Positions 33,190-52,904 of a stretch of DNA of 64,000 nt are shown here, one piece after another. A program made the translations under genes and the position numbers. This stretch comes from Candidatus Latescibacterota bacterium (lineage in GTDB: Bacteria; Latescibacterota; UBA2968; UBA8231): positions 3,552,001-3,616,000 of the forward strand of contig OZ241889.1 of NCBI GenBank assembly GCA_965203355.1, given 5' to 3'. The notes beneath the pieces are model-generated. The model worked only from the letters and a program-made list of their open reading frames with translations. It ran no database searches and had not been told where the DNA came from. Numbering within the stretch: the first letter of the stretch is position 1; the number at the start of each line of letters is the position of its first letter.

Positions 33190-33230
33190 GGGGGACTGCT
33201 TTTGCCACTTTACCGCAAAAAGGAACAGCG

Positions 33231-35000
33231 ATGACCCGTGCCGCACTCGCATTAGCTTGCTTAGCCATACCGGTCTCGGCCGCCGAACGGCTCAAAATAG
33301 GCGGCGATGGCCTGGAGTGGGAGCGCAACGCGCTCATCTTCAACGCACTTGAAGTCACCGACGATAGGGGCCTCTCGCCGCTGGAGGCCGACCCCGAAGA
33401 GAATATCCTGCCGCGCATCAAGGAACTCGGCGGCAGCGCGACCACCTCGGTGCGCACGGCAGCGGCGCGCTCCAATCAGATAATCAACGAACTCATCGAC
33501 GGCTCCCACACCACGGGTTGGCGCGTGTACACCAACCCCAACGGCGCTGAACTCGAAGTCGATATGGGTGCCATCTTCGTCCTCCATCGCCTCTATTTTC
33601 GCCGCGGCGTCCTCAACGACGACGAGCGTTCGCTGCGCGGCTACGAGTTCTACGCCAACGACGGCGATTCGCTCAACTTCATCGGCGGCAATCCCGTGTA
33701 CGCGCTCATAGCGCAAGACCGCTCGCACGGCCAGCCCGAGCTCGATCTGAGCTTTCCGCCGACCAAGGTGCGTTTTTTCAGGCTGCGCAGCACGGGCGAA
33801 CGCGGCTTCCAGATGGGCGACCTCGAAGTTTTTGGCGTTGGCGTCACGCCCTTTGCCCAGTACATATCGCACGTGATCGACCTCGGCGAGGCGGCCAACT
33901 TTGGGCCGATCGATGTGTACAGCCGCATCAACGGCACCGCGCAAGCCCAGTTCAGCACCAAAACCGGTTTTGTCGCCGAGGACTCGCTTTACTTCCGCCA
34001 AACCGGCATTCCCGGGGAAGTGGAGGAAGTGGCCCTAGCGGATTTCGACCGCACGCTCGATCCATCGTACGCCGGCGTCGTCCGCGAAAACGACCGCGAC
34101 TGGAGTGCGTGGTCCCCGCCCTACGCCGAGCGGATCAACGCCTCGATCCATTCGCCGGACAACCGGCGCTACCTCCAGTTCCAATTCAAGCTCCTGTCGG
34201 GCAGCTTGCTCGACAAAGCCGTCATCGACTCCGTGGTCTTTAACTACACCGTGCCGGCCCTCGCCGACTCGGTCATCGCCGAAATCAGCCCGGCCACGGC
34301 CATCCTCGGGCGGGAGAACGAATTTACCTATTACCTGCGCTCGGTCGTCTCGAGCGGCAACCGAGGTTTTGACACCGTGATCATCCACACGCCATTTGCG
34401 GCCCGCGCCACCGGCGTACGCGTCGATGGGGTGGAGATTGACAACTTCACCACAGCATCCGATTTGGGCCGCTTGCAGGTGAGCTTTCCCGACCAACGCA
34501 TAACCCGTAGCGGCCAAGAAGTCGCCGTGCGCTTTGCCAGCTTGGTCACCGTCTCCGGCACGGAATTCCGCGCCGAGGTCGCCGACAGCCAATCCGACGC
34601 GTTTCCTCAGCGAGTCGCTTTTGGCGATGCGGTCGCGGAAGCCGCCGACAACACGCTCGTCGTCAGTGCCCGCATCGACGATGAGCTTTTTACCGGCGTG
34701 GTGTTCTCATCTGCGGTAATCACGCCCAATGGCGATGGCATCAACGACCAGATCACCCTCGACTACATTCTGCTCAAGGCGACCCACGAGGTCGAAGTCG
34801 AGGTCGTCGTGTACGATTTGAGCGGCCAGCCGGTGCATCGCCTCTACCAAGCCCGCGATCGCTCCGGTCCCAATCAAGTTAGCTGGGATGGCCGCGACGA
34901 CGCCGGCGCGGTGGTGCCGGGGATGTACTTGCTCCGCCTCAAAGCCGCGACCGACGCTGGCATCGCCACGCAAATGCGGAGTATTGCCGTAGTGTATTAA
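33231..35000 (+). CDS. Secreted discoidin-like + FlgD-Ig protein, 'short' paralog
   Basis: ATG at 33231 after AAGGA; IGGDGLEW, LIDG..TTGW, SHVIDLG, WSAWS, SPDNRRY, TPNGDGIND; ends VVY. Confidence 0.8.
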   Translation: MTRAALALACLAIPVSAAERLKIGGDGLEWERNALIFNALEVTDDRGLSPLEADPEENILPRIKELGGSATTSVRTAAARSNQIINELIDGSHTTGWRVYTNPNGAELEVDMGAIFVLHRLYFRRGVLNDDERSLRGYEFYANDGDSLNFIGGNPVYALIAQDRSHGQPELDLSFPPTKVRFFRLRSTGERGFQMGDLEVFGVGVTPFAQYISHVIDLGEAANFGPIDVYSRINGTAQAQFSTKTGFVAEDSLYFRQTGIPGEVEEVALADFDRTLDPSYAGVVRENDRDWSAWSPPYAERINASIHSPDNRRYLQFQFKLLSGSLLDKAVIDSVVFNYTVPALADSVIAEISPATAILGRENEFTYYLRSVVSSGNRGFDTVIIHTPFAARATGVRVDGVEIDNFTTASDLGRLQVSFPDQRITRSGQEVAVRFASLVTVSGTEFRAEVADSQSDAFPQRVAFGDAVAEAADNTLVVSARIDDELFTGVVFSSAVITPNGDGINDQITLDYILLKATHEVEVEVVVYDLSGQPVHRLYQARDRSGPNQVSWDGRDDAGAVVPGMYLLRLKAATDAGIATQMRSIAVVY

Positions 35001-35086: not shown

Positions 35087-37702
35087 ATGCACAAAGTTAT
35101 GTTCTGGGGGCTTGCCTTGCTGGTTCTAGTGGTCGCCGCGTCCAGCGTCCAAGCAGCCACCCCGGGGCGCGAGCGCGGCGCCACCTCGCAAGTTCGGATC
35201 GAGGGCTTCGACCCCTTGATCCCGACTTTGCGCAAGTGGTACGTGCCCCAGGATCTCTACTACATCTACCATTGGGGAGGCTACAAGTACACCAACTACG
35301 CCAGGGAACCGTTCCAGCGCTATGTCAACACGCAGTTAGAAGGCACGGGCCAGTACGACATCTTCGGCAACTGGATCACCCGCGGCTGGCGCGTTTACGA
35401 GTGGCGTCAGCAGCAGCCGCTGGCCTTTGGCAGCTCGGTATTCAAAGACAGCCGCTTTGGCTCTTGGTTCCAAAACCTACTGGTGGCCGCCGATTCCAAG
35501 GGCCAGTACTACTCCGCGCTGACCGTCGGCGATTACATCCGCACGACCCTGACCCCACTGACCTTCAGCCGCTCGCGCTTCAACGGCGTCCAATGGGACT
35601 TTGCGTCCGACAAGTACGAAGCCACCGTGCTGCTGTCGCGCGTCAATGAACCGGTGCGGTTGGCACAGGGGGGGAACCGAGTGCAAGACACGGACTTCAC
35701 CAACTTCATCGGCCTGCGCGGCCGCGCCCAAGTCGGCGATTTCATGGGCTTAGGCGTCACGTATGTCAATACGAACTTCGGCTCGGCGAGCAGCAATTTC
35801 TCGGAAAACTCGCGCGCTGGCTTGCTGACCAGTAGCCAGAATTCGGGCAACGTCACCGAAATCGTCATCCGCATCGCCGACGACTCGCCCGGCGACGGGT
35901 CGGGCGCGTTGTTCTTTTCGGCGCAGATGATCGTCGATGGCCAAGAGACCGCGGTCAATCCCACTATTGAGGGCGGCCGCCAGCGCGAGGGCTTTCTCGA
36001 AGCCCTCGAAGAGGCCCCGATCCTCCTCCGCTACCGCGTGCCCGACCCGCTGGTGGTGCAAAAGGTCAGCTTTGCCATGGTGCTCTCCAACGACTATCGA
36101 GTGGAGATCACCTCCAACTTGCAGACCAATATCAACGGCCAGCCCATCTTCTTGCCGGTCACTCGCTCCGAAGGCAATGTGCGCGACAACACCAACCAGC
36201 GCGTCGTCCGCTTTGACTACGGACTACCTTCGGCCAACCAAATCGCCAGCGTTGACTTGACCATTGAGGATATATGGGGCTTGGAGGTGCGCGGCGAATT
36301 CGCGCGCAACACCCAGTTTCAGCGCTATCCCAACATCAACATCCAGAAACTGAGCAACCTCAAAAAGAGCAGCCGCACGGCCGATGCTTGGTTTGTCAAC
36401 GCCACGCGCCGCATGAACCGCTACTTTGGCTACGGCGAGGTGTTCAGCATGGATTACGGGTACACCACGCGCGGGTACATCACCGACCAAAACGATGTGG
36501 TGGATTACGAAAACCAGCGCCAGAACTGGTTCGAGTACATCGACGATAACGACGATCAGGACCAACTCGTCGATTGGCCGCGCTTTGGCGGGGCCGGCGG
36601 CGACAACGCCGTCTTCCCCGGCCTCGACGAAAACAACGACCTGCTCTCGGACTTCAACGAAAACGCCAACCTCACCCCGGACTACGAAGAGCCATTCTTG
36701 CGCCACTACATCGACCCGCCCGACTTCCTTTTTGGCGTCGATATGAACCACAATACCGTGGTGGATCGCTTTGAAAACGACGACGAGGCCGACTATCCCT
36801 ACCGCAAGGGTCATCGCGGCTGGAACGTGTACGGGGGAGCCGAGATTTACCCCGGGATCAATCTCACCGTAGGGCGCAATCGCGAGTGGCTGATCGCCGG
36901 CGAAGAGCGGTCAACCGCCCTGTACGCCTTGCTCAGCGCGGTGCGCGACATCGCTAGGACGGGCAAGTTTGAAGTCTTCCACATGATCAAGTCCGTTGAA
37001 GACAACATCGCCGACAACCTGCTGCAATGGGTGCAACGCCCAGGTTCCATTGGCGGCTTGCAGCCTTTTGACGACCCCTTAATCACCGGCAACACCCTCG
37101 TCAATCAGAGCTTCGTCGGCTACAAGTACGCCCGCGGCAACCTGACTTTTGTCAACAAGTTCCGCCTCGATCACTTCAAGCAGCGCGACGACGCGGCCAG
37201 CCGCCTCCGCGACAGCGCGTTCTACGGCGTGATCAACAAGGCGGATTATCCGTTTTCCATTGGGCGCAACATCACCTTTATCCCGCGCTGGAAAAACATG
37301 TGGCGCAAACGCACCCAACCGCGCACCATCCAGCTTGAGATCAACGAGTTGAGTGAGATTTTCTCCTTGTCCGCGGTGTTCCCGGTGCTGACGAGAAGCC
37401 GCGTCGAAGTCGGCGTAGAAGCCATAATTTTCCGCAATGCCGTGGCGATTCCCGACCCCTTGCCGCCCGAATACATCGACGATTTCATCGGCAAGGTGTT
37501 CACCCTACAGTACACCAATCGAGTCCAGTACCAAGGGTACAGCGTCATTTCCAACGTGGGCTTTCAGGTCAACGACATCAACTTTGCCAACCTCACCGAC
37601 CAAGACGTGAGCAACACCATTGCCTTCATCGAACTCTATGCCGGGCTAGACGAAGAGCGCTTGGGCGGCCGGCCCGCCGAAAGAAGGGGATGGAGCTTCT
37701 AA
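35087..37702 (+). CDS. Large secreted protein, probable outer-membrane beta-barrel with acidic Ca-binding-like loops
   Basis: RBS GGAGG; signal peptide; alternating aromatic/polar strands; DDNDDQD, DENND and DMNHN motifs; terminal Phe. Confidence 0.55.
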   Translation: MHKVMFWGLALLVLVVAASSVQAATPGRERGATSQVRIEGFDPLIPTLRKWYVPQDLYYIYHWGGYKYTNYAREPFQRYVNTQLEGTGQYDIFGNWITRGWRVYEWRQQQPLAFGSSVFKDSRFGSWFQNLLVAADSKGQYYSALTVGDYIRTTLTPLTFSRSRFNGVQWDFASDKYEATVLLSRVNEPVRLAQGGNRVQDTDFTNFIGLRGRAQVGDFMGLGVTYVNTNFGSASSNFSENSRAGLLTSSQNSGNVTEIVIRIADDSPGDGSGALFFSAQMIVDGQETAVNPTIEGGRQREGFLEALEEAPILLRYRVPDPLVVQKVSFAMVLSNDYRVEITSNLQTNINGQPIFLPVTRSEGNVRDNTNQRVVRFDYGLPSANQIASVDLTIEDIWGLEVRGEFARNTQFQRYPNINIQKLSNLKKSSRTADAWFVNATRRMNRYFGYGEVFSMDYGYTTRGYITDQNDVVDYENQRQNWFEYIDDNDDQDQLVDWPRFGGAGGDNAVFPGLDENNDLLSDFNENANLTPDYEEPFLRHYIDPPDFLFGVDMNHNTVVDRFENDDEADYPYRKGHRGWNVYGGAEIYPGINLTVGRNREWLIAGEERSTALYALLSAVRDIARTGKFEVFHMIKSVEDNIADNLLQWVQRPGSIGGLQPFDDPLITGNTLVNQSFVGYKYARGNLTFVNKFRLDHFKQRDDAASRLRDSAFYGVINKADYPFSIGRNITFIPRWKNMWRKRTQPRTIQLEINELSEIFSLSAVFPVLTRSRVEVGVEAIIFRNAVAIPDPLPPEYIDDFIGKVFTLQYTNRVQYQGYSVISNVGFQVNDINFANLTDQDVSNTIAFIELYAGLDEERLGGRPAERRGWSF

Positions 37703-38997
37703 AGCCGCAGACGGCCATCTTGGCCTGGGGCTTGTGGGCCTGCGCCGACGCACCGCCCGAAAGCGCGTCGGCGATCTTGGCCCGAGTGGGCGAAGCCGAG
37801 ATTAGCGCGCGGGATTTTGCCGCGGCGTTAGAAAAGCTCCCGGCCAGCCGCGAAGCGCAGCCGCTTGCCGATTGGCGTCGCCAACTTCAGGCCCTCATCG
37901 ACAAAGAGTTGCTGCTGCTCGAAGCCCAGGCCCAAGGGCTAGACGAAGCGATCGCCGATGCGATGGCCGTTTGGGAGCGCCAAGAACGGGTCGAAGCGTT
38001 GCTCGCACGCGAGATGGGCGAGCGATTGACTTATACGGAAGCCGAGCTCGCGGCATTCTTCGCCGAATCGGGCGCGGGCCGCGAAATTCGCTTGCGGCGC
38101 TTGCCCGTGCGCGAGCGGGCCGCCGCCTTGGCGGCGCTTAGAAAGGCGCAAGAAGGGTTGGCTCTGGACGGAGCGTGGAGCGAGAGCGGGTGGCTCAACG
38201 CACTCAACGCGGGCGACGCGCGCACCGCCGCCCTGTTCCTACAGGAAGTGGGAGCCGTTGAGTTGGTAGAAACGGACGGGCAATTTTTAGTGGTAGCCGT
38301 TGCGGCCGAGCGCTCGGTCTCGTTGGCCGACCGCCGACCGCTCGTGGAAGCGGCCCTAGCTCGGCACAAGAAGCAACAGGCGAACCTAGCCTATCTAGAG
38401 CAGTTGACCAGCCAATACGCGGTGCAGTTAGACACGGCCGCGCTGCGGCAGGTCGCCGCTGGTGCGGCGCGGCCAGCGGTGCGGTTGGTCCGCAGTGCGG
38501 CGGGCGACTGGAGCGTCCGGGACTACCAGCAGGCCCTCGCCCGACTCGGGGCCGCGGCCGGGTCGCCGCCGACCGATGTCAGCGCCCTCGGATTCAAGGT
38601 GACGCGGGCCTTTGTCGCCGACCAAATTCTACCGCGGGAAGCGCGCCAGCACGGCCTAGACGCCGAGTTGGAACCGCGCCGCGCTGAGGTGCGCCAACAA
38701 AAGCTGATCCAAGCCTTGTGGGAGCGAGAAATTTACGCGCACATCGAGCTTGACCCCGCGCAGATACGCGCCTTTTACGAGGCCAACGCGCAACGCTACG
38801 CCCGCTCGGGCGCGCTCGGGCAAAAACTGCAAGCGCAAGTTGCACGCGACCTGCGCGACGCCCAAGCCGTGCCCCTATTCGACCGCTACATCGCGCAACT
38901 GCGCGAAAAATACGCCGAACTCGTCGCGGTGGAGGAAGGGCGGTTGGGGGCGTTTGTCTCCCAACGCAGACAGGCGACCAACCCAGTCGATCTATGA
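37690..38997 (+). CDS. SurA-N-domain/degenerate parvulin chaperone lipoprotein
   Basis: Lipobox-like LWAC; ILARVG..EIS, LIDKELLLLEAQAQGLD and IRAFYEAN are shared with the other foldases; rotamase motifs eroded. Confidence 0.65.
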   Translation: MELLKPQTAILAWGLWACADAPPESASAILARVGEAEISARDFAAALEKLPASREAQPLADWRRQLQALIDKELLLLEAQAQGLDEAIADAMAVWERQERVEALLAREMGERLTYTEAELAAFFAESGAGREIRLRRLPVRERAAALAALRKAQEGLALDGAWSESGWLNALNAGDARTAALFLQEVGAVELVETDGQFLVVAVAAERSVSLADRRPLVEAALARHKKQQANLAYLEQLTSQYAVQLDTAALRQVAAGAARPAVRLVRSAAGDWSVRDYQQALARLGAAAGSPPTDVSALGFKVTRAFVADQILPREARQHGLDAELEPRRAEVRQQKLIQALWEREIYAHIELDPAQIRAFYEANAQRYARSGALGQKLQAQVARDLRDAQAVPLFDRYIAQLREKYAELVAVEEGRLGAFVSQRRQATNPVDL

Positions 38998-39020
38998 GTT
39001 TATCAGAGAGGAGTGTTCCC

Positions 39021-39785
39021 ATGGACGCTGACAAAAAAATTTCCATCCTCGTCGCGGCGGCCCTCTTATTGGCCTGCGGCCATTACCTAATGCCCGGGCG
39101 GTTCCAGCCCTTAGAGGTGGCCCAGCAGTCGACCGACATTCAAGGGTCGAGTATGAAAATCCTCGACGACGGTACGGTCACCTTCGTGCAGAACCGCCTC
39201 GAAGTGTCCGTGCGGCCCATGGACGACGAGGAGATCAATCGCCAGTACCCGGCCCAATCTACCAACGCCAGCGGTCCGGCCGACGAGCTACCGTCCAACC
39301 CGTTCACCTATGGCAATTGGCTCGATCCGCGCACCGGTACGTCTCCGCAGCGTTTGTCCATCTTCAAAATCACGGTCAAAAACTACGAATATCCCAAGGT
39401 TAAGTTCGACCCGCTGCTGGTGAACGTGGAGTCGGCCAATGGGCGGCACTATCATCCTTGGGGCAGCTATGACGTAGAGGAGTACTTTCGGCGTTTTCCG
39501 TTGGCCTTCAACGGTTTGGGCTATATGCGCTTTGACGAGCGTCGCGACCTCTACAACCAAGCCAAGTACCCAGACGACGAGTTTTGCTTCTCCGGGCAAG
39601 AGGTCGAAGGCTACGTGGTTTTCCCCAAGATCCACGACGACGTCGCCGAAATCGCCGTCGAGATTCCCGAGTTCGGCCTGCGCTACAACTTCCGCAACGA
39701 GCCTCTGGAGACTATCGACCTGCGCTTCCGCTTCAAGCGCGCCATTGACAGAGTCAAAAACATCGACAAACTAGCGGCCAATTAG
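39021..39785 (+). CDS. Hypothetical lipoprotein (Ig-like, DUF4352-like fold possible)
   Basis: RBS GAGGAG; lipobox LLAC; FKITVKN...SGQEVEGYVVF. Confidence 0.7.
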   Translation: MDADKKISILVAAALLLACGHYLMPGRFQPLEVAQQSTDIQGSSMKILDDGTVTFVQNRLEVSVRPMDDEEINRQYPAQSTNASGPADELPSNPFTYGNWLDPRTGTSPQRLSIFKITVKNYEYPKVKFDPLLVNVESANGRHYHPWGSYDVEEYFRRFPLAFNGLGYMRFDERRDLYNQAKYPDDEFCFSGQEVEGYVVFPKIHDDVAEIAVEIPEFGLRYNFRNEPLETIDLRFRFKRAIDRVKNIDKLAAN

Positions 39786-39836: not shown

Positions 39837-42800
39837 ATGCTGATCAAATCCCTCCTATTCGCCACCGCGGCCTTCTTTCTGCTATCGGTTACGGCCTTTA
39901 ATCCAGCCACCATAGCGCGCTGGATGGAACGGGCCATCGGCTGGGAACCCCGGCGCGAAGTGCCCGCGACCAGCGAAGCCCCCTCGCTGCGCGAAGCCGT
40001 CGCGCAAATAAACGCCGCCGACCTAGCGCACCACCTCCGCATCCTCACCGCCGACTCGTCCCGCGTTACCGGCTATGCGGGAGCCACCAACGCAGCCCGC
40101 TATATCGAAGGGGCATTCCGCCGACTCGGCCTCCAAGTCACCAGCGAATTTTTCCCCCTTTCCGTTCCGCTAGATCGCGGGGGTCGGCTGCGTTTGGTCG
40201 GCTCGGACGAATCCATCCCCATCTACGGGTTGTGGCCCAATCACGTGCGCACGCCATCCCTGCCACCGGGCGGCGTCTCCGGCCACCTCATAGACTTGGG
40301 GCGCGGCAGTTTGGCCGCGATGGATGGAAAACGGCTAGCAGGTAGTGTCGCGCTGATGGGATTTGGCTCGGGCAACGCCCACGTCCAAGCGCGGGCCTTG
40401 GGCGCACAAGCTATCCTGCTGTACGACGATGGTCGCGTCACGCGCAGCCAGGCCGCGGAAAAATTCCTCCAAGTGCCCGTGGACATCCCGCGCTTTTGGG
40501 TGGAAGCGGCCGACGCCGAACTCCTGCGGCAACACGCGCCCAGCGGCAACGCCCACGTGCATCTCACCGCGCGCATGGATTGGGAGTCGGTCCAGGCACG
40601 CAACATATTCGCCGTGCTCCCGGGCTTGGCCGAGGACATGCCGCGCGGTCAGCGCCGCGAAATCCAGCCGTGGGACGAGCAAATCATCGTCCTGCAAGCA
40701 CACTACGACGCGATCTCGGTCGTCCCGGCGCTGGCCCCGGGCGCCGAGAACGCGACCGGCATGGCGGCACTGCTCGAAATCGCGCGTTTGCTCGTCGCCG
40801 AAGGCACCCGCTACACCGTGCTCTTTTTGGCCACCCCCGGGCACTTTCAAGGCTTGGCCGGCGTCAACGATTTTCTCTACCGCCACGCGCGCAAAAGCGC
40901 GCATTTTCGCGACCAGATCCCGCCCGCCGACCGCATTGACTTCCGCCTCTTCATCGGCCTCGACTTGGCCAGCCACAGCCCGCAAGTCGGCAGCTTTACC
41001 CTGGGCACGTTCTACAACTCGGCTTGGCGCAACGACGACTATCAAAAAAACCTGATGGCGCACTACGCCTCGCGCTTTGCCCGCTACAACCGCGAGATTT
41101 TCGCGGACTCAACGCGCTACCAAGACGCCATTGCCCCGCCGAAGCGGGTGTGGAAAAACTTCATGCCCGTGCGCCTCGCGCTCGACAGCGAGGCCGCGGC
41201 TTTCGTGGGCAAAGAATCGCTCTCCTTCGTCACGCCCAACCAACTGCGCCAGCGCGTTGACACGCCCCTCGACCGGCTCGAATTCGTCGCGCTCGACAAC
41301 CTCGCCGAACAGACTCGCACCCTAGCCGGGCTATTGCTCAAGGCCGCTTCCGACCCGGACTTTTTCAACGACACCAAGCTGACCCTACGCGACTGGGGCC
41401 ACAGCTTAGCAGGCAACATCTACTGGTTCGACCGCGACGTGAATTTTGCCGTGCCCAAGGCCCCGGTGCCCAACGCTCTGGTCACCTATCTCCAGCCCGG
41501 CCCCAACGCCGTGGCCGGCGTGCGCACCCTTATGGCCACGCACGGAGACGAGAGCGGCTACTTCAAGTTCGACATTGTGCGCAACCGCTTTGCCAACCGG
41601 ATCCAAGCCTTTGAACTCGACGAATACGGGCGCATCGTCTCGGCCCCGGACCTCGGCGAAGAAGGCGACAAAACCTATCCGGGCACCCAGCCGTATGGCT
41701 GGTGGGAAAACCGCATGTTGCAGGTCCTGTTTCGCTGCCGCGCCCTGAGCTTTTTGGAGGTGGTTGATCCGCGCTACCTATCGGCCATGGACCGCGTCAA
41801 CGTCCTCGGAGCCAACGACGCGCCGCCGCGTTCCTTTTCCCTCAGCTACATCGAAAACCAGAGCGCCGGGCAAGACCGGGTGGTGCAGGCGGGCGTGGTG
41901 TTCGCCGAGCCGGGCACCCGCGTCAAAATTCTCGCGGGCGAGGGCGCTTTTGGCGGCGAAAGTGCGCTCGCTGGCGTGCGCTACATGCTCACCAATGCGG
42001 ACTCCGCCCTGTTCGCCGACCTCGATCCGGCCCGCGTTGATCTGGCGACCATTGAGCGGGCACAAGGCGCGGGCTTCCGCGTCGAACAAGGACTCATCCC
42101 CTACCCGGCCTGGCAAGCCGCCCGCGACATCTGGATCATCAACGAGGCGCGGATCAAACAAATGGTGCGCCACGGCATCGTCCTCGACCAGCTACAGGCC
42201 ATGCACGAACAAGCGCGCGCTGCCCTGCTCGAAGCCAGCGACAAACGCGCGGCGTTCGATTACACCGGCTACCAGCGCGCCGTCCGCCGCGCCCTCGGGC
42301 TGGAGGCCCGCATCTACCCGGAAATCAAGGCCACGGCCAACGACGCGGTCCGCGCGGTAATTTTCTACTTCGCGCTCCTGTTGCCCTTTGCCTTCTTCTG
42401 CGAGCGTTTCTTCTGCGGCTTCCCGGACGTGCGGCGGCAAATCGCCGGCTTTGTCGGCATCTTCGTCCTCGTGTTTTTGATTCTGCGCTTTGTCCATCCA
42501 GCCTTCAAACTGAGCACCTCGCCGTACATCATCTTTCTCGCGTTTGTCATCCTCGCTTTGGGCGTCCTCGTCATTTTCATCGTCGTGGCGCGCTTTAAGG
42601 CCCTTTTACAACGGCGCAAGGGCGCAGCCGCCGGCCTGCACGAAACCGACGTGGGCCGGATCGCCGCGGGTTTTGCGGCCGTGTTGTTGGGCATCTCCAA
42701 CTTGAGCAAGCGCCGCCTGCGCACCGCGCTGACCGCCGCGACCCTGACCTTTTTGACCTTTACCGTCAACTCCTTTACCTCGGTCAAGTCCAGCTTCGAC

Positions 42801-44429
42801 TTCTATCGCCTGCCGCGCGACACCCCGCCTCTGTACGAAGGCGGCCTCATCCGCGACCGCGCTTGGCGCGGCCTACAGGATTCCATCTTGGACTACGTGC
42901 AGAGCGCGTTTGGCGACCGCGCTTTGGTGGTGCCGCGCGCTTGGTATTTGTCGCCGGTCGAATCCGAGCGGGCCTTTATCGACCTAACCGCCACCGCCAC
43001 CGGCGCGGCCAGTTTCGCGCATGGCGTGGTGGGCCTACAGCCGGCTGAAGCCCAGGTAACGGGCCTGGACGCGCACATCTCGGCGGGCCGCTTCTTTGCG
43101 GCGGGCGACGACCAGGTCGTCATCTTGCCCGACAGCCTAGCCGCGCTCATCGGCATTGGTCCCGAAAACGTGGGCACGGCGTCCATCGCGCTATACGGCG
43201 AGGAGTACCAAGTCATTGGCCTGTTTGACAGCGCGGCCCTGAAAGAAGTCGTCGATCTCGATGGCGAGCGTCTGACGCCGGTGGATACGGTCAAAGACGC
43301 CGGCCTCATCGCGCGCGAGAGCACCGAAGACCCACGCGCCTTGGCCGCCACCGCGGTCGAAACCTTCAACCACCTCGAAGTAATCAACACCCTCTTCTTG
43401 CCCTATGAGCGCGTCCGCGCCATGGACGGCCGCCTGCGCTCCATCGCCATTGCTGCGGACGCGGGCGACCCGGAATTTGTCCAGCGCGTAGAGTCCTTTA
43501 TGTCGCGGGTCGCGCTGACCCTGTTCGTCGGCCAAGGCGACCGGGTCGTGGCGTACAGTTCGATCGGCTCCACCCAAATAAGCGGGGCCGGCCAACTCTT
43601 GGTGCCGATCATCATCGCCGCCTTGATCGTGCTCAATACCATGATGGGAGCCGTGTACGAGCGCGTGCGCGAAATCGGCATCTACAGCGTGGTCGGCTTG
43701 GCCCCCAGCCACATCGGCCTGCTATTCTTGGCCGAGTCCACGGTCTTTGCCACCTTTGGCGCGGTGGTCGGTTACGTCCTCGGCCAAGTCGCCCATCTGT
43801 TCATGCTGCAATACGGGCTGCTGGCCGGCCTGACGCTCAACTACTCGTCGCTGTCGGCGGTGTGGGCTACGATCATCGTCATCGGCACGGTCTATTTATC
43901 GACCTTGTATCCAGCGTGCCTAGCGGCCAACATGGCCGTCCCGGACGTGACGCGGCAATGGCAATTCCCCCCACCCGCTGGCGACCACTGGCGCTTTGAC
44001 TTTCCCTTCACGGTCGGCGGGGCCGAAGTGCCGAGCATGTACGTGTACCTCAAATCGGTTTTCGCCGCCTACGGCGAAGGCTCAATCGGCGACTTCATCG
44101 CCCGCGACATCGAGCTATCCGTCACCCCGGACGGGCCGGAGCCATCCTACGCCATTGCCATGAGCACTTGGCTGGCTCCCTACGACCTCGGCATCAGCCA
44201 ACAGGTACGCCTACGGGCAACTCCCACGGGCGAGCACCGCATCTACAAGATCGAGACCCACATCGAACGCCTCAGCGGCGACGTGGCCTCTTGGCAGCGA
44301 ATGAATCGCAAATTCCTCAACGTGCTGCGCAAGCGATTCCTCGTCTGGCGCACTCTGGCGCCGGGGATCCGCCAAGAGTACCACACGCGGGTGTCGGCCG
44401 AATTTGCCCACAGCGCGGAACCGACATGA
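39837..44429 (+). CDS. M28 peptidase-like domain + FtsX/MacB-like permease fusion (1530 aa)
   Basis: SRVTGY.G, PA-like insert, AHYD...GAENATG; TM block; MacB-like periplasmic domain (GRFF); FtsX motif VYERVREIGIYSVVGLAP...FLAE. Confidence 0.85.
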   Translation: MLIKSLLFATAAFFLLSVTAFNPATIARWMERAIGWEPRREVPATSEAPSLREAVAQINAADLAHHLRILTADSSRVTGYAGATNAARYIEGAFRRLGLQVTSEFFPLSVPLDRGGRLRLVGSDESIPIYGLWPNHVRTPSLPPGGVSGHLIDLGRGSLAAMDGKRLAGSVALMGFGSGNAHVQARALGAQAILLYDDGRVTRSQAAEKFLQVPVDIPRFWVEAADAELLRQHAPSGNAHVHLTARMDWESVQARNIFAVLPGLAEDMPRGQRREIQPWDEQIIVLQAHYDAISVVPALAPGAENATGMAALLEIARLLVAEGTRYTVLFLATPGHFQGLAGVNDFLYRHARKSAHFRDQIPPADRIDFRLFIGLDLASHSPQVGSFTLGTFYNSAWRNDDYQKNLMAHYASRFARYNREIFADSTRYQDAIAPPKRVWKNFMPVRLALDSEAAAFVGKESLSFVTPNQLRQRVDTPLDRLEFVALDNLAEQTRTLAGLLLKAASDPDFFNDTKLTLRDWGHSLAGNIYWFDRDVNFAVPKAPVPNALVTYLQPGPNAVAGVRTLMATHGDESGYFKFDIVRNRFANRIQAFELDEYGRIVSAPDLGEEGDKTYPGTQPYGWWENRMLQVLFRCRALSFLEVVDPRYLSAMDRVNVLGANDAPPRSFSLSYIENQSAGQDRVVQAGVVFAEPGTRVKILAGEGAFGGESALAGVRYMLTNADSALFADLDPARVDLATIERAQGAGFRVEQGLIPYPAWQAARDIWIINEARIKQMVRHGIVLDQLQAMHEQARAALLEASDKRAAFDYTGYQRAVRRALGLEARIYPEIKATANDAVRAVIFYFALLLPFAFFCERFFCGFPDVRRQIAGFVGIFVLVFLILRFVHPAFKLSTSPYIIFLAFVILALGVLVIFIVVARFKALLQRRKGAAAGLHETDVGRIAAGFAAVLLGISNLSKRRLRTALTAATLTFLTFTVNSFTSVKSSFDFYRLPRDTPPLYEGGLIRDRAWRGLQDSILDYVQSAFGDRALVVPRAWYLSPVESERAFIDLTATATGAASFAHGVVGLQPAEAQVTGLDAHISAGRFFAAGDDQVVILPDSLAALIGIGPENVGTASIALYGEEYQVIGLFDSAALKEVVDLDGERLTPVDTVKDAGLIARESTEDPRALAATAVETFNHLEVINTLFLPYERVRAMDGRLRSIAIAADAGDPEFVQRVESFMSRVALTLFVGQGDRVVAYSSIGSTQISGAGQLLVPIIIAALIVLNTMMGAVYERVREIGIYSVVGLAPSHIGLLFLAESTVFATFGAVVGYVLGQVAHLFMLQYGLLAGLTLNYSSLSAVWATIIVIGTVYLSTLYPACLAANMAVPDVTRQWQFPPPAGDHWRFDFPFTVGGAEVPSMYVYLKSVFAAYGEGSIGDFIARDIELSVTPDGPEPSYAIAMSTWLAPYDLGISQQVRLRATPTGEHRIYKIETHIERLSGDVASWQRMNRKFLNVLRKRFLVWRTLAPGIRQEYHTRVSAEFAHSAEPT

Positions 44430-46336
44430 CCGCGCGCGCCTTGCTCATCGGCTTGGGCCTCGTAGTGCTGATCAACATCGGGGCTCCGTACAGCATGTTC
44501 ATTCTCAAGTCCTCGCAGTGGGCGATCAGCTATCTGCCCTTGAGCGTGGTCTTTCTCTTTACCGGCTTGGTCTTTCTCAACGCCACGGCCAAGTCGCTGC
44601 TAAAAGTGCGCGGCCTCGTCACCAGCGAACTCGGCTTGATCTTCATCATGTCCTTGGTCGGCGCCTCGATTCCCACTTGGGGCACTTCTACGTACCTGAT
44701 CGCCGTCATCGCCGCGCCCCAGTATTTTGCCTCGCCCGAAAATCAGTGGCAGAGCAAGGTCGTGCAGTACATAGAAGAATGGCTCGTGCCCAACGACGCG
44801 ATTGCCCTCAAGTGGTTTTACAACGGCCTACCCGCGGGCGAATCCATTCCTTGGGGGGCTTGGATCGTGCCGCTTTTTTGGTGGACCAGCTTGGTGATGG
44901 CCATTTTCTTTTTGTGTCACTGCATGGTCGCGGCACTGCGCAAGCAGTGGGTCGAGTACGAGCGTCTGCCCTTCGCGCTGATGGAATTGCCCCAGCAACT
45001 CATCGCCCCGCCATCGGGCACTAACTGGCCCAGCTTCGTGCGGCAAAAGGCGTTCTGGTTCGGCTTTGCCCTGCCCTTCTGCGTGGTCATGTGGAACGTG
45101 GTCTCGTACTTTACCCCGGCCTTTCCCCCCATTCCGCGCGATCTGTCCGATCCCATTCGCATTGGCCGCGAATTTCCCGCCATCAACACCAACATCAACT
45201 GGGCCATCGTCGGCTTTGCGTATTTCGTCAATCTCGACGTGTCCTTCAGCATGTGGTTTTTCACGGTGCTGACCATGCTGCAACAGGGCCTGTTCAACCG
45301 CTTTGGCTACACTATTGCTGGCCGCGATGTGTACACCCTCGGCCACCCCGGCATCGGTTGGCAGTCATTCGGCGCGTTGATCGCCCTCGTCGTCGGGATG
45401 TTGTGGATGGCGCGCGGCCACCTCGGCGCGATCTGGCGCAAAGCCGTGCACAACGATGCAGACGTCGACGACTCAGACGAGTTGATGTCCTATCGGATGA
45501 TCGTCTTTGGCGGCGGGTTGGCCCTGCTGTACATCGCCTTTTGGCTGTGGCGGGCCGGCGTGAACCCCCCCGCGATCGCGCTCTTCATCTTGGCCACCTT
45601 GGTGCTCTACGTCGGCATTACCCGCATCATCATGGAGGGGGGCTTGCTCTTCAGCCGCGCCCCGCTAGTCGGCCAGACCTTCGTCGGCTACGCACTCGGG
45701 CCGCACGCTACCGCGCAGAGCCACATCGTCATGGGACTGTCCTACGGCTGGCACCACGAGCTCAAAGGCTTCTTCATGGTCGCGGCGGCCAACAGCGCCA
45801 AAGTGTCCGACCACGTCCGCGGCAACCGCCGCTGGCTGAGCTTCTACATCTTCCTCGCGGCCCTCGTAGCCCTGATCGTCTCCATGGCCTTTGCGCTCTA
45901 CATGGGCTACTCCTATGGCGCGTACAACTACGGGGGGTGGATCTTCGGCACCGGGTCGCAAGTGCCCTACGTGGAAAGCCTGCGCAAAATCGACCTCAAG
46001 GCCCCGGATTGGACGCGGTTGGGCCACCTCCTGAGCGGCGCGGGGGCCATGGGGCTGCTAACCTTTATGCGCTACCGCTTCTCGTGGTGGCCCCTGCACC
46101 CGATCGGCATGCCGGTCGGCATCTGCTCCTACCCCATGACCATCATCGTCTTTTCGATCTTCGTCTCTTGGCTGGCCAAATGGGCCATCATGCGCTCGGG
46201 CGGCATCGGCCTCTACCACCGCGCCCAGCCCTTTTTCATCGGCCTCATCCTCGGGTACTTCACCGCGATTGGCCTGTCCTTTTGCATTGACATGATTTGG
46301 TTCCCCGGGCAGGGGCACCCGCTATACGGAAACTAG
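44426..46336 (+). CDS. DUF6785/DUF6784-like polytopic membrane protein (OPT-related)
   Basis: W..W..PL.WW, LRKQWVEYERLPF, WWPLHPIG, PFFIGLILG; ATG overlaps the upstream TGA. Confidence 0.8.
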   Translation: MTARALLIGLGLVVLINIGAPYSMFILKSSQWAISYLPLSVVFLFTGLVFLNATAKSLLKVRGLVTSELGLIFIMSLVGASIPTWGTSTYLIAVIAAPQYFASPENQWQSKVVQYIEEWLVPNDAIALKWFYNGLPAGESIPWGAWIVPLFWWTSLVMAIFFLCHCMVAALRKQWVEYERLPFALMELPQQLIAPPSGTNWPSFVRQKAFWFGFALPFCVVMWNVVSYFTPAFPPIPRDLSDPIRIGREFPAINTNINWAIVGFAYFVNLDVSFSMWFFTVLTMLQQGLFNRFGYTIAGRDVYTLGHPGIGWQSFGALIALVVGMLWMARGHLGAIWRKAVHNDADVDDSDELMSYRMIVFGGGLALLYIAFWLWRAGVNPPAIALFILATLVLYVGITRIIMEGGLLFSRAPLVGQTFVGYALGPHATAQSHIVMGLSYGWHHELKGFFMVAAANSAKVSDHVRGNRRWLSFYIFLAALVALIVSMAFALYMGYSYGAYNYGGWIFGTGSQVPYVESLRKIDLKAPDWTRLGHLLSGAGAMGLLTFMRYRFSWWPLHPIGMPVGICSYPMTIIVFSIFVSWLAKWAIMRSGGIGLYHRAQPFFIGLILGYFTAIGLSFCIDMIWFPGQGHPLYGN

Positions 46337-46339: not shown

Positions 46340-48322
46340 ATGGCCAAAGACCACCCCAAAGCACCCGAGCTGATTCCCGCGGATCTCCAATTTGAACCGG
46401 GCTTCAACCTCAAGACCTTGTGGGCCGCGCTCTTCGTCGGCTTCATCATGCTGCCCGGGGCCATCTACTTGGGGCTGGTGACCGGCCAGAGCATGGCCGG
46501 CGGGGCCGAGTGGGTAACGCTCATCCTCTTCATCGAAATCGCCAAGCGCTCCTTTGCCCGCCTGCGCACCCAAGAGGTCATCATTCTCTACTGGGTGGCC
46601 GGCGGCTTGGTCGTGATGGGCGGCAAGCTGGGCACCGGAGCCGAGCTGTTTGGCGGGCCTTTTGGCGGGCTGATCTGGGACCAGTACTTGATCCAATCGC
46701 CCCAAGCCGACGGCTTGCACCAGTACATCCCCGACTGGGTAGTGCCGCCGCGCGGGTCGCCAGCGCTGGCGGGACGCTCCTTTTTGCACCCGGCTTGGCT
46801 CAAGCCCATCGCCCTGCTCCTGACGGTCATTGTGATGCAGAAGATCAACAGCCTGTCCTTGGGCTACGTGCTGTTCCGCATCACCAACGACATCGAGCGT
46901 TTGCCGTACCCGCTCGCCGCAGTGCAGGCCGGCGGCGCGACCGCCCTCGCCGAAAGCGCCGGGCCGAGCCAAGGCTGGCGCTGGGAGGTCTTTAGCATTG
47001 GGGCCTTTATCGGCATTGTCTGGGGGCTGTTCTACGTAGTTATTCCCACGATCTCGGGCATTTTCTTTACCGAAACCGTGACGATCCTGCCGATTCCGTT
47101 CATCGACCTAACCGTCTCCCTCAAGGGAATACTGCCGGCCAGCATCATGGGCATGGGCACGGACCTCGGGCACGTCATGGTCGGCTTTGTCCTGCCCTTT
47201 TGGATTGTGGTCGGCTCCTTTGCCGCGGCCTTTCTCGTCAACATCCTCGTCAACCCGCTGCTCTACGCCTACGACGTGCTGCACACTTGGGAGCCGGGCA
47301 TGTCGGCGATCCCAACCCAGATCGCCAATTCCTTTGACTTCTGGCTCAGCTTCTCCATTGGCGGCGCCGTCCTCGTGGCCGCGATGGGTTTTGCCATGGT
47401 GGGCAAGACCTTGTGGACTTTGCGCGGGGTTAAGCGCGAGGGCCACGACGGCCGGCTGCCCGCCGGACGCGGCGACATCCCCATCCCTTTCGCCTTGGGC
47501 ATCTGGGCGGTGAGCACACTCGGCTTTGTGGTCTTGGTGTGGTATTTGGTGCCGGAATTCCCTTGGTGGATCAGCGCGTTCTTCGGCTTTGTGTGGACGC
47601 CGATCTACTCGTATATCGGCGCGCGCATGATCGGCCTGACCGGCTCGCCGCAAGGAGCGGCCTTCCCCTATCTGCGCGAAGGCTCCTTTTATCTGTCGGG
47701 CTATCAGGGCGCGGCCGTGTGGTTCGCGCCGATTCCGCTCTTCCAGTGGGGCTACGAAGCAGCGGCCTTCAAGCAACTCGAACTGACCCGCACCCACTTC
47801 GGCAGCATCGTCAAACTGGCCGGCGTTACGTTGCTGATCATGTTTGTCTGTTCGTTTGTGTTCTGGTCTTTTATCTGGAAGCTCGGGCCGATTCCCTCGG
47901 CAGCCTATCCCTATGTGCAGAAGTTTTGGCCTTTCCACGCCACCATGCAGGCGTTCTGGGCCAAGTCAACGCTCGCCGAAGGCGGCAACGAGCTGATCAA
48001 AACCATCATTCGCTGGGAATACGTGCTCACGGGCGCGTTGAGCAGTGCCGGGATTTTGGGCGGGCTGGCGCTCTTGCGCTGGCCGATCGCCCTGTTCTAC
48101 GGATTCATCGGCGGCGTGGGCGCGTGGCCGCACTTTCTGCTGCCCAACTTCATCGGCGCCTTGCTGGGCCGCTATCACTTGCAGAAGCGCTTTGGCGAGG
48201 CACGCTGGCGGGCGTACGCGCCGATTCTGTTGGCCGGCTATTCGTGCGGGATGGGCTTGGTCGGCATGTCTTCCATCGCGCTGGCGCTGATTTCAAAAGC
48301 AGTGTCGAGCATTGTTTTTTAG
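46340..48322 (+). CDS. OPT-superfamily-like membrane transporter
   Basis: About 16 hydrophobic segments; MLPGAIYLGL, DIERLPYPLA, GPIPSAAYPY, PILLAGYSCG. Confidence 0.7.
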   Translation: MAKDHPKAPELIPADLQFEPGFNLKTLWAALFVGFIMLPGAIYLGLVTGQSMAGGAEWVTLILFIEIAKRSFARLRTQEVIILYWVAGGLVVMGGKLGTGAELFGGPFGGLIWDQYLIQSPQADGLHQYIPDWVVPPRGSPALAGRSFLHPAWLKPIALLLTVIVMQKINSLSLGYVLFRITNDIERLPYPLAAVQAGGATALAESAGPSQGWRWEVFSIGAFIGIVWGLFYVVIPTISGIFFTETVTILPIPFIDLTVSLKGILPASIMGMGTDLGHVMVGFVLPFWIVVGSFAAAFLVNILVNPLLYAYDVLHTWEPGMSAIPTQIANSFDFWLSFSIGGAVLVAAMGFAMVGKTLWTLRGVKREGHDGRLPAGRGDIPIPFALGIWAVSTLGFVVLVWYLVPEFPWWISAFFGFVWTPIYSYIGARMIGLTGSPQGAAFPYLREGSFYLSGYQGAAVWFAPIPLFQWGYEAAAFKQLELTRTHFGSIVKLAGVTLLIMFVCSFVFWSFIWKLGPIPSAAYPYVQKFWPFHATMQAFWAKSTLAEGGNELIKTIIRWEYVLTGALSSAGILGGLALLRWPIALFYGFIGGVGAWPHFLLPNFIGALLGRYHLQKRFGEARWRAYAPILLAGYSCGMGLVGMSSIALALISKAVSSIVF

Positions 48323-52769: not shown

Positions 52770-52904
52770 TGGCAGCGGCGTTGCCCGATCTCGCCGCAGG
52801 TATTGTATTATGGCGCGATTAGTAGTTGTGTGCTTTACCTGTTTGCTCTAAGGTTTCAAGTTCATAAGCGACTCAATCCGCACCTCCCCAAGGGAGTGTT
52901 TTCG

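Follow-up and report, generated by a model that had tools for sequence, protein, structure and literature searches.

A giant Latescibacterota membrane protein with an altered aminopeptidase-like head and a MacB/LolC-type permease module may draw on an ATP motor encoded elsewhere in the genome

How does an FtsX-type permease work when it is fused to a peptidase-like domain and no ATPase gene lies beside it? The question is raised by the open reading frame at positions 39837 to 44429 (+ strand) of the window, the 64-kb stretch of Latescibacterota DNA analyzed here. Its translation is a giant membrane protein of 1530 aa (P0001), in which Pfam recognized Peptidase_M28 at residues 279 to 414 (E = 3.4e-9) and FtsX at residues 1258 to 1366 (E = 2.7e-10). 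The family to which P0001 belongs is large, with more than 700 full-length homologues and 1785 cluster representatives at E ≤ 1e-3, and unstudied, no paper describing it having been found in the literature.

From the open reading frame and the Pfam matches, P0001 was divided into a PA/M28-like head, a stalk, three extra transmembrane (TM) helices, a MacB/FtsX module and a C-terminal cytoplasmic domain; all features given below lie on the + strand. A hydropathy scan placed a predicted signal peptide or membrane anchor at residues 1 to 21 (39837 to 39899). It is followed by the PA + M28-fold ectodomain (residues ~60 to 503, 40014 to 41345; AlphaFold, Foldseek and family profile) and, in the model, by a beta-sandwich region (residues ~522 to 718, 41400 to 41990) and three long helices running toward the membrane (residues ~757 to 835, 42105 to 42341). 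Hydropathy and a model of residues 830 to 1530 then placed the three additional TM helices (residues ~831 to 931, 42327 to 42629) ahead of the MacB/LolC-type module (residues ~940 to 1367, 42654 to 43937; Pfam FtsX, Foldseek and VIA-align). The modeled chain ends in a cytoplasmic alpha/beta domain that is not an NTPase fold (residues ~1384 to 1524, 43986 to 44408).

In the AlphaFold model of the ectodomain (pLDDT 92.6, pTM 0.91), the head on the periplasmic side adopts the PA + M28 aminopeptidase fold. Foldseek matched it to 2ek8, PaAP and BSAP at E values of 1e-23 to 1e-21 and to TfR1/GCPII at ~1e-17. The earlier note had likened the domain to nicalin and nicastrin, and the likeness to nicalin is real: phmmer gave E = 9e-4 over residues 280 to 335, and the family profile gave E = 3.5e-12 over 275 positions, with the whole M28 domain aligned. 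However, the same profile matched 2ek8 at E = 8e-27, so that by sequence comparison the head scores better against active bacterial PA-M28 aminopeptidases than against nicalin. We therefore rejected membership in the nicalin/nicastrin group and kept the resemblance as analogy and distant homology.

Positions of the metal site were mapped with HMMER onto two aminopeptidases of known structure, 2ek8 and 6hc6, and residue conservation was counted in 95 relatives of P0001 (27 to 92% identity). The three strings on which the earlier note relied are all present, namely, AHYD (residues 288 to 291, 40698 to 40709), GAENATG (residues 302 to 308, 40740 to 40760) and TPGHFQGLAG (residues 333 to 342). The first Zn-ligand His is kept in P0001 as claimed (HHD/HYD aligns with H289-Y-D291), but it is not typical of the family: among the 95 relatives, Tyr predominates at this position (64), ahead of His (13) and Phe (10); D291 is nearly invariant (94/95). 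E304 replaces the bridging Asp of GAxD and is itself E in 72 and D in 9 relatives. The catalytic Glu-Glu pair is altered too, but the residues that replace the catalytic Glu and the ligand Glu are H336-F337 (40842 to 40847) and not G335-H336, which had been proposed and lies one residue too N-terminal. The His substitution is conserved across relatives (H336, 94/95), and position 337 is F in 58, H in 9, G in 9, Y in 6, C in 5 and T in 4, with Glu absent among these six commonest residues. D376, in a GLDL motif (40962 to 40964) that aligned with the LD motif of nicalin, is kept in 93/95, and from its motif position and general knowledge of M28 enzymes we take it to be their fourth ligand Asp. 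In alignments to 2ek8, 6hc6 and nicalin, R471-x-x-V-D475-T-P-x-D479 (41247 to 41273) replaces the YHTxxD motif: D475 is the counterpart of the last ligand His (YHT) in the 2ek8 and 6hc6 alignments, which are low scoring and mutually consistent, and R471 aligned with an Arg of nicalin. R471, D475 and D479 are kept in 93, 82 and 92 of the 95 relatives, respectively. With the bridging Asp, the Glu-Glu pair and the last His all replaced in these alignments, the earlier view of a catalytically altered M28 domain is borne out; the canonical di-zinc site and general base are not intact, and the co-catalytic zinc site seems to have given way to another polar cluster that is itself conserved (D291, E304, H336, D376, R471 and D475).

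The head would then serve in ligand binding, with the end of a peptide or protein as the likeliest ligand, rather than act as a standard aminopeptidase. It might instead still be an enzyme, in which E304, H336, D376 and D475, with R471, bind one metal or form a new catalytic center that trims peptides or other polymer ends before uptake by transporter-like neighbors. Residues at or beside the old active-site positions are among the best conserved of the ectodomain (H336 and D291 in 94/95, D376 and R471 in 93/95), drift would be expected of a purely structural relic, and M28-fold relatives with a mononuclear site are known, e.g., glutaminyl cyclase. Yet the general-base Glu is His in 94/95, the ligand Glu has become Phe or another residue and is never commonly Glu, Tyr or Phe takes the place of the first His ligand in 74/95, and nicalin, which can be aligned along the entire domain, shows the same type of loss. 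We consider an enzymatic head improbable; it would be compatible with the presence or the absence of a motor.

The neighbors in question lie directly downstream. A polytopic membrane protein with DUF6785 and DUF6784 (44426 to 46336; Pfam E = 2e-113 and 2e-24) begins within the giant gene, its ATG overlapping the TGA of the latter as ATGA, and starting 3 nt past its own stop is the gene of P0122 (46340 to 48322), a 660-aa polytopic membrane protein resembling a divergent OPT-type "peptide transporter." P0122 itself had no Pfam match even at E ≤ 10. However, its first Atlas match (0.98) was a cluster with OPT in 33% of members, homologues at 58 to 64% identity carry PF03169 and the NCBI name "peptide transporter," and hhalign related it to the DUF6785 family with a probability of 94.3%. 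Paralogues of P0122 in G001, a genome with a 93%-identical orthologue of P0001, fell just below the OPT cutoff (25.4 versus 25.8 bits). On these profile comparisons, both proteins are distant relatives of OPT-type peptide transporters. A P0122-like gene directly follows the giant gene in 17/17 loci of the clade at 50 to 57% identity, and a DUF6785-like and/or P0122-like gene adjoins it in every locus with a flank long enough to judge. G001 carries seven giant paralogues; its six further paralogous loci all have an OPT-like gene (6/6), fused to the giant gene in one (L059), and the single-chain order M28-FtsX-DUF6785-DUF6784 recurs in the representative P0189. The overlap, the 3-nt spacer, the synteny and the fusions thus uphold the link to OPT-like neighbors that the earlier note had drawn.

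Three genes upstream (35087 to 39785), characterized by their translations and weak NCBIfam/Pfam matches, encode an exported protein of 871 aa that ends in GWSF and may be outer-membrane-like, one of 435 aa with weak similarity to the SurA/EpsD N terminus and one of 263 aa that bears a lipobox-like LLLAC. This trio is syntenic in closer relatives only (L001, L026, L027, L028 and L033) and is absent in L032, L037 and the seven 50 to 53% loci examined. A peptide theme for the system is suggested by genomic context, namely, the OPT-like partners, a P0122-like paralogue with fused PDZ domains, an M55 D-aminopeptidase gene set among the genes of one paralogous locus (L056), and a PqqD-like protein in the fullest operon described below.

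The membrane part of P0001 resembles ABC transporter permeases. Foldseek matched it to MacB, LolCDE and YtrEF at E values of 6e-11 to 1e-7, and VIA-align gave Z = 15.3 for YtrF, 14.2 for MacB and 12.6 (rmsd 3.7, 182 residues) for 3ftj, the periplasmic domain of MacB. The modeled order is an elbow helix, TM1, a periplasmic domain (42780 to 43583), TM2, a short coupling helix, TM3 and TM4, so that the tail is predicted to be a MacB/LolC-type FtsX permease module plus a small cytoplasmic domain. That last domain had no Pfam or Atlas match, and VIA matches were middling (the KA1 domain 3ost at Z = 8.9, Aha1/START-like folds at Z = 8.2 to 8.5).

As the earlier note stated, no ATPase partner lies near the gene. 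ABC_tran was absent from 40 open reading frames of at least 100 aa picked across the window, and an ATPase HMM constructed for this analysis matched nothing but an AAA_15/AAA_21 protein at 621 to 2303, and that weakly (30.8 bits). Neither a small FtsX nor a MacB-type ATPase was found in the window or in 61 genome loci (L001 to L061), a set that covers every locus of the clade to which the window belongs. None of the seven giant genes of G001 has ABC_tran within 12 kb, and within 5 kb the count is 0/7 versus 18/27 for the other FtsX genes (hypergeometric P value of ~0.002). These absences suit a receptor or scaffold independent of ATPases, in which a motorless FtsX dimer holds the pseudo-peptidase over proton-driven OPT-like permeases and the conserved C-terminal cytoplasmic domain sits where an ATPase would dock. 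Such a reading also agrees with the lack of a fused ABC_tran domain in 13 long representatives (0/13), although DUF6785/6784 were fused in L059 and P0189. The lack of ABC_tran near the G001 genes fits a motor acting in trans equally well. Strong conservation of the short helix that links TM2 to TM3 and of its REIG motif, the parts through which MacB-type permeases contact their ATPase, argues against independence from an ATPase.

Other relatives add a second objection. In three metagenome loci (L092, L126 and L139), a small FtsX protein (213 to 228 aa; PF02687, E = 1e-17 to 1e-20) and an ABC_tran ATPase (243 to 246 aa) are encoded within 1 to 5 kb, in three different gene arrangements; a further locus, L093, had scores identical to those of L092, and the pair was seen in only 4/80 metagenome loci. 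A full operon in the order giant gene, OPT-like gene, 294-aa protein, PqqD-like protein, small FtsX and ATPase was confirmed in L159 and L161 and is present in L163 as well, where the small FtsX was placed from the genome search. The paired ATPase is MJ0796/MacB/LolD-like (E = 7e-73 and 1e-56, versus 1e-45 for FtsE), and the small FtsX matched the MacB membrane domain better (1e-15) than it did division FtsX (7e-6). G001 has one orthologous pair, 119 kb away from its P0001 orthologue (69 to 76% identity for the ATPase, 46 to 58% for the small FtsX). Across 61 sampled Latescibacterota genomes, the giant gene was present in 48 (matches that are not copy numbers) and the small FtsX in 44, the latter in 44/48 genomes with the giant gene versus 0/13 without it, a count that ignores genome kinship and may reflect one clade boundary. 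Where present, the small FtsX was a single match (44/44). A linked ATPase was thus found in part of the family, as operon pairs in some relatives; the claim that there is no ATPase partner holds for the window and its close relatives but not for those with the pair in the same operon.

With operon pairs in three arrangements and a single-copy pair that co-occurs with the giant gene, we regard independence from an ATPase as rather unlikely, and the ATP motor of P0001 most likely comes from elsewhere in the genome. We lean, with modest confidence, toward a modular ABC machine of type VII (MacB/Lol-like) with its motor in trans, in which P0001 is the large substrate-specific or receptor subunit. 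Its FtsX module would pair with the minimal four-TM small FtsX and the MJ0796/LolD-type ATPase; the source organism, for which we infer the motor from G001, would encode this pair elsewhere and share it among several giant paralogues. ATP-driven movement of the stalk helices could then shift the head and load, unload or gate the OPT-like permeases. The earlier proposal of a receptor coupled to OPT-like neighbors survives in its OPT link but not in freedom from an ATPase as a family property.

The same ABC module could move the head for another purpose, cell wall remodeling, as in FtsEX-EnvC: the head would activate peptidoglycan hydrolases or bind stem peptides, and the OPT-like proteins would recycle released peptides. 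FtsEX-type mechanotransmission to periplasmic partners is established, one long representative (P0216) has an added N-terminal LysM + NMB0315-like domain, and the M55 D-aminopeptidase lies inside one paralogous locus. Still, up to seven paralogues per genome fit substrate diversity better than a housekeeping role, the neighboring genes for a TonB-dependent receptor and secreted discoidin-domain proteins point to nutrient acquisition, and no amidase or M23 gene is conserved beside the module in the loci examined. We consider this role very improbable.

Among known systems, the head (residues ~60 to 500) has its best sequence and fold matches in the bacterial PA-M28 aminopeptidases (Aneurinibacillus 2ek8, Bacillus subtilis BSAP/YwaD and Pseudomonas aeruginosa PaAP), a likeness that extends to the inserted PA domain. 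Those enzymes are secreted, whereas the head of P0001 is tethered to a membrane machine and has 3/5 metal-ligand positions (4/5 in the family consensus) and the general base replaced. Nicalin, nicastrin and transferrin receptor 1 are M28-fold ectodomains that have lost catalysis and serve as receptors or scaffolds in membrane complexes. Nicalin shares HYD, GA(D/E), LD and the Arg at position 471 with P0001, and transferrin receptor 1 resembles its head by Foldseek; however, these proteins are eukaryotic and single pass and have other partners, and the likeness implies no specific common ancestry.

With type VII ABC transporters (MacB, LolCDE, YtrEF, HrtBA and FtsEX), P0001 shares an FtsX membrane domain of four helices, the short coupling helix and, inserted after TM1 and before TM2, a periplasmic domain of Porter/Sabre-like type, and as with LolC/LolE and LolD, its relatives have a second FtsX subunit and an MJ0796/LolD-type ATPase in one operon. 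Unlike them, it has a pseudo-peptidase head of 815 residues and, in addition, three further TM helices and a further cytoplasmic domain; its putative small FtsX partner lacks the periplasmic domain of their second FtsX subunit, the motor is unlinked in the P0001 clade and probably common to several paralogues, and its obligatory partners are OPT-superfamily permeases. Known OPT oligopeptide transporters (PF03169), the family whose domain occurs in the close homologues of P0122 and to which DUF6785 is related through P0122, are stand-alone proton symporters, whereas the OPT-like partners here are tied to an ABC-type protein. The ADOP "orphan" permeases, duplicated FtsX permeases of Acidobacteria (NCBIfam TIGR03434), likewise form large paralogous FtsX families with no adjacent ATPase gene, and G001 has ADOP-like genes (~800 aa, two FtsX matches each). 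P0001 differs in its single FtsX domain, giant head and OPT-like partners, and the ADOP model did not match it at E ≤ 0.01. A parallel in logic comes from group II ECF transporters, in which one shared energizing module serves many S components. Folds and mechanism are unrelated and motor sharing is conjectural for the P0001 system, but the seven giant genes of G001 and the single small FtsX match suggest a like arrangement, in which each genome has a single motor locus and several unlinked, substrate-specific membrane subunits.

The giant gene at 39837 to 44429 (+ strand) is a single open reading frame that exactly fills this interval, and its 1530-residue product, P0001, gave two Pfam matches, Peptidase_M28 at residues 279 to 414 (E value = 3.4e-9) and FtsX at residues 1258 to 1366 (E value = 2.7e-10). 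It is a genuine gene. A word-indexed search recovered more than 700 full-length relatives of 1450 to 1620 residues sharing both domains; the few that are named are called "hypothetical protein," "FtsX-like permease," or "M28 family peptidase." When the first 840 residues served as query in an exhaustive search, 1785 representatives of clusters at 50% identity were returned (E value ≤ 1e-3), with 575 at an E value of ≤1e-30, and lengths were mostly 1400 to 1900 residues among the 150 representatives listed. Four representatives (P0126, P0128, P0130, and P0216) have 2450 to 3050 residues and carry extra domains N-terminal to the M28-like head, either Big_5 Ig-like repeats or LysM and an NMB0315-like domain. 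The genomes nearest to P0001 are Latescibacterota metagenome-assembled genomes, some carrying Gemmatimonadota or Planctomycetota labels. The giant gene was present in 48 of 61 Latescibacterota genomes sampled, and one genome, G001, which encodes a 93%-identical P0001 orthologue, holds seven giant genes. The literature searched, which lay mostly outside subscription journals, yielded no description of this architecture and no mention of DUF6785 or DUF6784, the domains of the gene next to it.

We modeled residues 22 to 836, the head of P0001, with 50 aligned relatives (pLDDT = 92.6, pTM = 0.91). The best Foldseek matches were to the solved aminopeptidases 2ek8, PaAP, and BSAP (E values of 1e-23 to 1e-21), followed by the transferrin receptor and GCPII (about 1e-17). 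Judged by this model, the head has the PA/M28 alpha-beta fold, with a beta-sandwich region and three long helices C-terminal to the PA/M28 part. The co-catalytic site of M28 enzymes such as those of Aeromonas and Streptomyces has five metal ligands, His, Asp, Glu, Asp, and His, and we mapped it by HMMER alignments of P0001 to 2ek8 and to 6hc6, both aminopeptidases of known structure. The HxD motif of both enzymes aligned with H289-Y-D291, their bridging Asp with E304, and their Glu-Glu pair with H336-F337; the His of YHTxxD fell on D475 in lower-scoring alignments in which 2ek8 and 6hc6 agreed. P0001 has H289, E304, F337, D376, and D475 at the five ligand positions instead of the canonical set, and the general-base Glu that an active M28 enzyme requires just before the ligand Glu is His336.

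These substitutions were then compared with the residues of 95 P0001 relatives (27 to 92% identity). Position 336 was His in 94 of the relatives, position 291 was Asp in 94, and positions 376 and 471 were Asp and Arg, respectively, in 93 each; position 475 was Asp in 82, position 304 was Glu in 72 and Asp in 9, and position 337 was Phe in 58, with Glu not among its six commonest residues. An earlier note on this DNA had called the M28 domain catalytically altered from three motifs (AHYD, GAENATG, and TPGHFQGLAG). All three were located in P0001, and the ligand set and general base are missing from it and from the relatives. The Glu-Glu site is replaced as the note had said, but one residue away from where it had placed the change according to the HMMER alignments. 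The first zinc-ligand His that it read in AHYD is indeed H289, the sole ligand that P0001 keeps, yet this residue is not conserved among the relatives (Tyr in 64, His in 13, and Phe in 10). These residue counts mean that, on sequence grounds, the whole family has lost both the canonical two-zinc site and the general base. The residues replacing the old site are themselves conserved, and the pocket is therefore under selection; we read the rebuilt pocket as a putative ligand-binding pocket. The same conserved replacements might form a new metal or catalytic center in a head that is still catalytic, which would be compatible with either view of the motor, but with the canonical ligands and base replaced we think this quite unlikely.

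The resemblance to nicalin that the note had pointed out was borne out by phmmer (E value = 9e-4, residues 280 to 335) and by the family profile (E value = 3.5e-12 over 275 positions), with the Arg at position 471 common to both. The same profile matched 2ek8 at 8e-27 and BSAP at 8e-23, both active, PA-containing bacterial enzymes, and nicastrin at 2e-3. Since 2ek8 and BSAP outscore nicalin, the likeness points to distant homology with parallel catalytic loss and not to membership. These comparisons indicate that P0001 is not a nicalin and that its head is an M28-fold domain without the defining catalytic features.

The membrane part (residues 830 to 1530) was modeled with a pLDDT of 85.8 and a pTM of 0.61, showing three extra membrane helices followed by a MacB/LolC-type module. 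Foldseek matched this model to MacB, LolCDE, and YtrEF (E values of 6e-11 to 1e-7), and VIA-align to YtrF (Z = 15.3) and MacB (Z = 14.2); a profile match to MacB stood at 3.4e-16. Like the type VII ABC permeases MacB, LolC, and FtsX, P0001 combines the four-helix FtsX domain, seen in both the Pfam and YtrF matches, with a periplasmic Porter/Sabre domain between the first and second transmembrane helices, which superimposes on the MacB periplasmic domain 3ftj (Z = 12.6, rmsd of 3.7 over 182 residues). Some homologues also carry PF12704. The fold and the Pfam match both place the membrane part in the MacB/FtsX superfamily. Eight membrane helices are predicted from hydropathy combined with the model; in this topology, the head and the MacB-like domain lie outside the membrane, and the cytoplasmic side holds the C-terminal domain. 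The latter, the last 150 residues or so, is a small alpha/beta domain with middling VIA-align matches to KA1 (Z = 8.9) and Aha1/START-like proteins (Z = 8.2 to 8.5); as modeled, it is not an NTPase fold, and an Atlas search with it gave no usable match. ADOP orphan permeases (TIGR03434) have two FtsX domains per chain. P0001 was rejected as a duplicated permease of this type, since Pfam found one FtsX stretch only and no ADOP family was among the NCBIfam matches at an E value of ≤0.01.

We next considered the OPT-like neighbors. The TGA of the giant gene overlaps the ATG of the DUF6785/DUF6784 gene (44426 to 46336, +) in the sequence ATGA at 44426 to 44429 (+), and the gene for P0122, a 660-residue protein (46340 to 48322, +), starts 3 nt past the stop of the DUF6785/DUF6784 gene. 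P0122 itself had no Pfam match even at an E value of ≤10. Its nearest Atlas cluster (score of 0.98) bears the automatic name "peptide transporter" and has OPT in 33% of members, and homologues at 58 to 64% identity carry PF03169 and the NCBI name "peptide transporter." Paralogues in G001 scored 25.4 and 19 bits against PF03169 (cutoff, 25.8), and in a profile-profile comparison P0122 and the DUF6785 family were related with a probability of 94.3%. Against the sequences of solved structures in the PDB, P0122 gave nothing beyond short, recurring matches to designed armadillo repeats, and we attribute these to chance.

The same partners recur across relatives. Within the clade of the window (66 to 94% identity), loci with enough flank keep the order giant gene, DUF6785, P0122; in the 50 to 57% clade (L039 to L055), a P0122-like gene lies directly downstream of the giant gene in 17/17 loci, and DUF6785 was not found in their flanks. 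This pattern of OPT-like partners also holds in the 80 metagenome loci wherever the flank allows, and each of the six other giant genes of G001 has a DUF6785-like gene beside it. Moreover, one G001 protein (L059, 2132 residues) holds M28, MacB_PCD, FtsX, DUF6785, and DUF6784 in one chain, and a second fusion of the M28-FtsX-DUF6785 type is represented by P0189. Because the overlap, the synteny, and the fusions coincide, there is strong evidence from gene organization for a functional and probably physical partnership between the giant and the OPT-like proteins, in line with the coupling that the earlier note had suggested. Complex prediction for the DUF6785 protein with P0001 residues 1250 to 1530 scored 0.11 against a mark of 0.32, which is evidence neither way.

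Several features of the surroundings were recorded alongside. In many close relatives (at least 90% identity), the giant/DUF6785 junction holds inserts of 0.7 to 4.2 kb (L003:14596-15481, L006:14587-18784, L012:14593-16441, L013:14596-15724, L018:14590-17825, and other loci), which the window lacks; they contain a recurrent PIN-domain pair of 84 and 126 residues, Fic proteins, a GmrSD restriction enzyme, and a DNA methylase, and the junction looks like a small toxin-antitoxin or defense hot spot within the operon. A stretch of lower GC content (0.54 to 0.59) at 113 to 5569, encoding a PIN protein, a DUF499 protein, and an AAA_15/AAA_21 ATPase partnered by a DUF4276 protein, looks like a defense or mobile islet. 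On both sides of the giant/OPT-like module lies an array of paralogous secreted proteins (25458 to 35000 and 58236 to 62282), most with F5/8 type C (discoidin) domains and all with a C-terminal FlgD_ig and/or CHU_C-type sorting domain. Two adjacent WD40-repeat open reading frames of 513 and 398 residues occupy 52803 to 55432, their called coordinates overlapping by about 109 nt. A second DUF6785/DUF6784 gene (56257 to 58209) has no giant FtsX gene beside it and is followed by two FlgD_ig-tailed proteins.

The earlier note had also held that the permease lacks an ATPase partner, and for this window that is correct. None of 40 open reading frames scanned in the window matched ABC_tran, and the window and 61 related genome loci (1.35 Mb in total) were devoid of MacB-type ATPases when searched with an ATPase HMM, the sole clear match being a MalK-type gene in L041. 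In G001, no ABC_tran match lay within 12 kb of any of the seven giant genes; in contrast, 18 of the 27 other FtsX genes had one within 5 kb. A separate cluster in G001:C1 (about 2.06 to 2.11 Mb) comprises some 13 genes for proteins of roughly 790 to 880 residues with two FtsX matches each, only two ABC_tran matches being seen inside it, and presumably resembles the "orphan duplicated permease" families of Acidobacteria.

Taken alone, such loci would suit a giant protein that serves as a scaffold independently of any ATPase. We regard this as unlikely, as an ATPase is linked to the giant gene in other relatives, and the earlier claim is not supported for the family as a whole. Among the 80 metagenome loci, L092, L126, and L139, in three different gene arrangements, encode an FtsX protein of 213 to 228 residues without a periplasmic domain and an ABC ATPase of 243 to 246 residues, 1 to 5 kb from the giant gene; L093 scored identically to L092. 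In the genome loci L159 and L161, the pair belongs to an operon of, in order, a TPR protein (an assignment made in L161), the giant protein, a P0122-like protein, a 294-residue protein with no match among solved structures, a PqqD-like protein, the small FtsX, and the ATPase. L163 has the same operon, its small FtsX being placed by a separate small-FtsX search. The operon ATPase is MJ0796/MacB/LolD-like, with lower likeness to FtsE, and the small FtsX is nearer the MacB membrane domain than division FtsX. An FtsEX-like role at the cell wall seems very improbable to us.

G001 has exactly one orthologous motor pair, 119 kb from its P0001 orthologue. The ATPase of this genome at L158 is 69 to 76% identical to the operon-linked ATPases and is for that reason a better candidate trans partner than the one at L067:3977-4726, which is 52 to 58% identical and was rejected. 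The latter (at about 3.778 Mb in G001) is a second LolD/MacB-type ATPase, whose isolated gene has uvrB on one side and a pyruvate dehydrogenase E1 gene on the other; no FtsX gene is closer than 4 kb. The ATPases of L088, L089, and L094, which adjoin a BPD_transp_1 importer gene, that of L108, which most resembles a G001 sugar-importer ATPase, and the MalK-like one of L041 were judged unrelated.

Of the 61 Latescibacterota genomes sampled for the giant gene, 44 contained the small FtsX, which matched once in each: it was found in 44/48 of those that have a giant gene and in 0/13 of the others. These counts ignore kinship among genomes, and the co-occurrence could stem from one clade boundary. 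The four exceptions (G021, G027, G031, and G035), with a giant gene and no small FtsX found, may be incomplete assemblies. We slightly favor a modular type VII ABC machine in which one motor locus per genome, consisting of the small FtsX and the ATPase, would serve several giant subunits, each combining a remodeled, peptidase-like head with OPT-like permeases of its own; the motor for the giant gene of the window would then be encoded elsewhere in the genome. The head would bind a peptide or a protein end, the giant subunit would pair with the small FtsX, and ATP-driven movement would act on the permeases in a direction that we likewise infer. The peptide theme is a matter of context only. It comes from the OPT-like partners, from a P0122-like paralogue that carries PDZ domains, from one locus that encloses an M55 D-aminopeptidase, from a TonB-dependent receptor beside the fused form, and from the PqqD-like protein in the full operon.

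In the parts of the Latescibacteria metabolic reconstruction covered here (PMC4454575), M28 enzymes are counted with the peptidases that liberate free amino acids, and such fusions are not noted. The giant M28-like proteins probably do not act in this way, and M28 counts may therefore overstate aminopeptidase capacity. Aquatic and sediment metagenomes of uncultured lineages are the source of many related contigs, and the family may therefore be relevant to the uptake of breakdown products by these organisms. If the proposed machine is real, a dead-peptidase receptor would link an ABC-type force-transmitting motor with permeases of the OPT fold, a combination of which no earlier description was found, and the system would offer a bacterial counterpart for studying inactive M28 domains as substrate receptors.

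More tentatively, the family could represent a new, composite class of transporter, a reading we consider possible but doubtful. A type VII ABC mechanotransmission motor, the small FtsX with its MJ0796-like ATPase, would act in trans and be common to interchangeable giant receptors, each a pseudo-peptidase head with its own OPT-fold permeases, and ATP hydrolysis would drive or gate transport through an otherwise secondary-transporter fold. The head would select the substrate, as nicalin and nicastrin do in eukaryotic membrane complexes. P0001 shares with those proteins an M28-like ectodomain without the catalytic set, although it is not closer to them than to ordinary M28 enzymes. Furthermore, whereas nicalin and nicastrin have a single-pass anchor and work with partners in the BOS or gamma-secretase complexes, P0001 is predicted to have eight hydrophobic helices and contains a MacB-type module.
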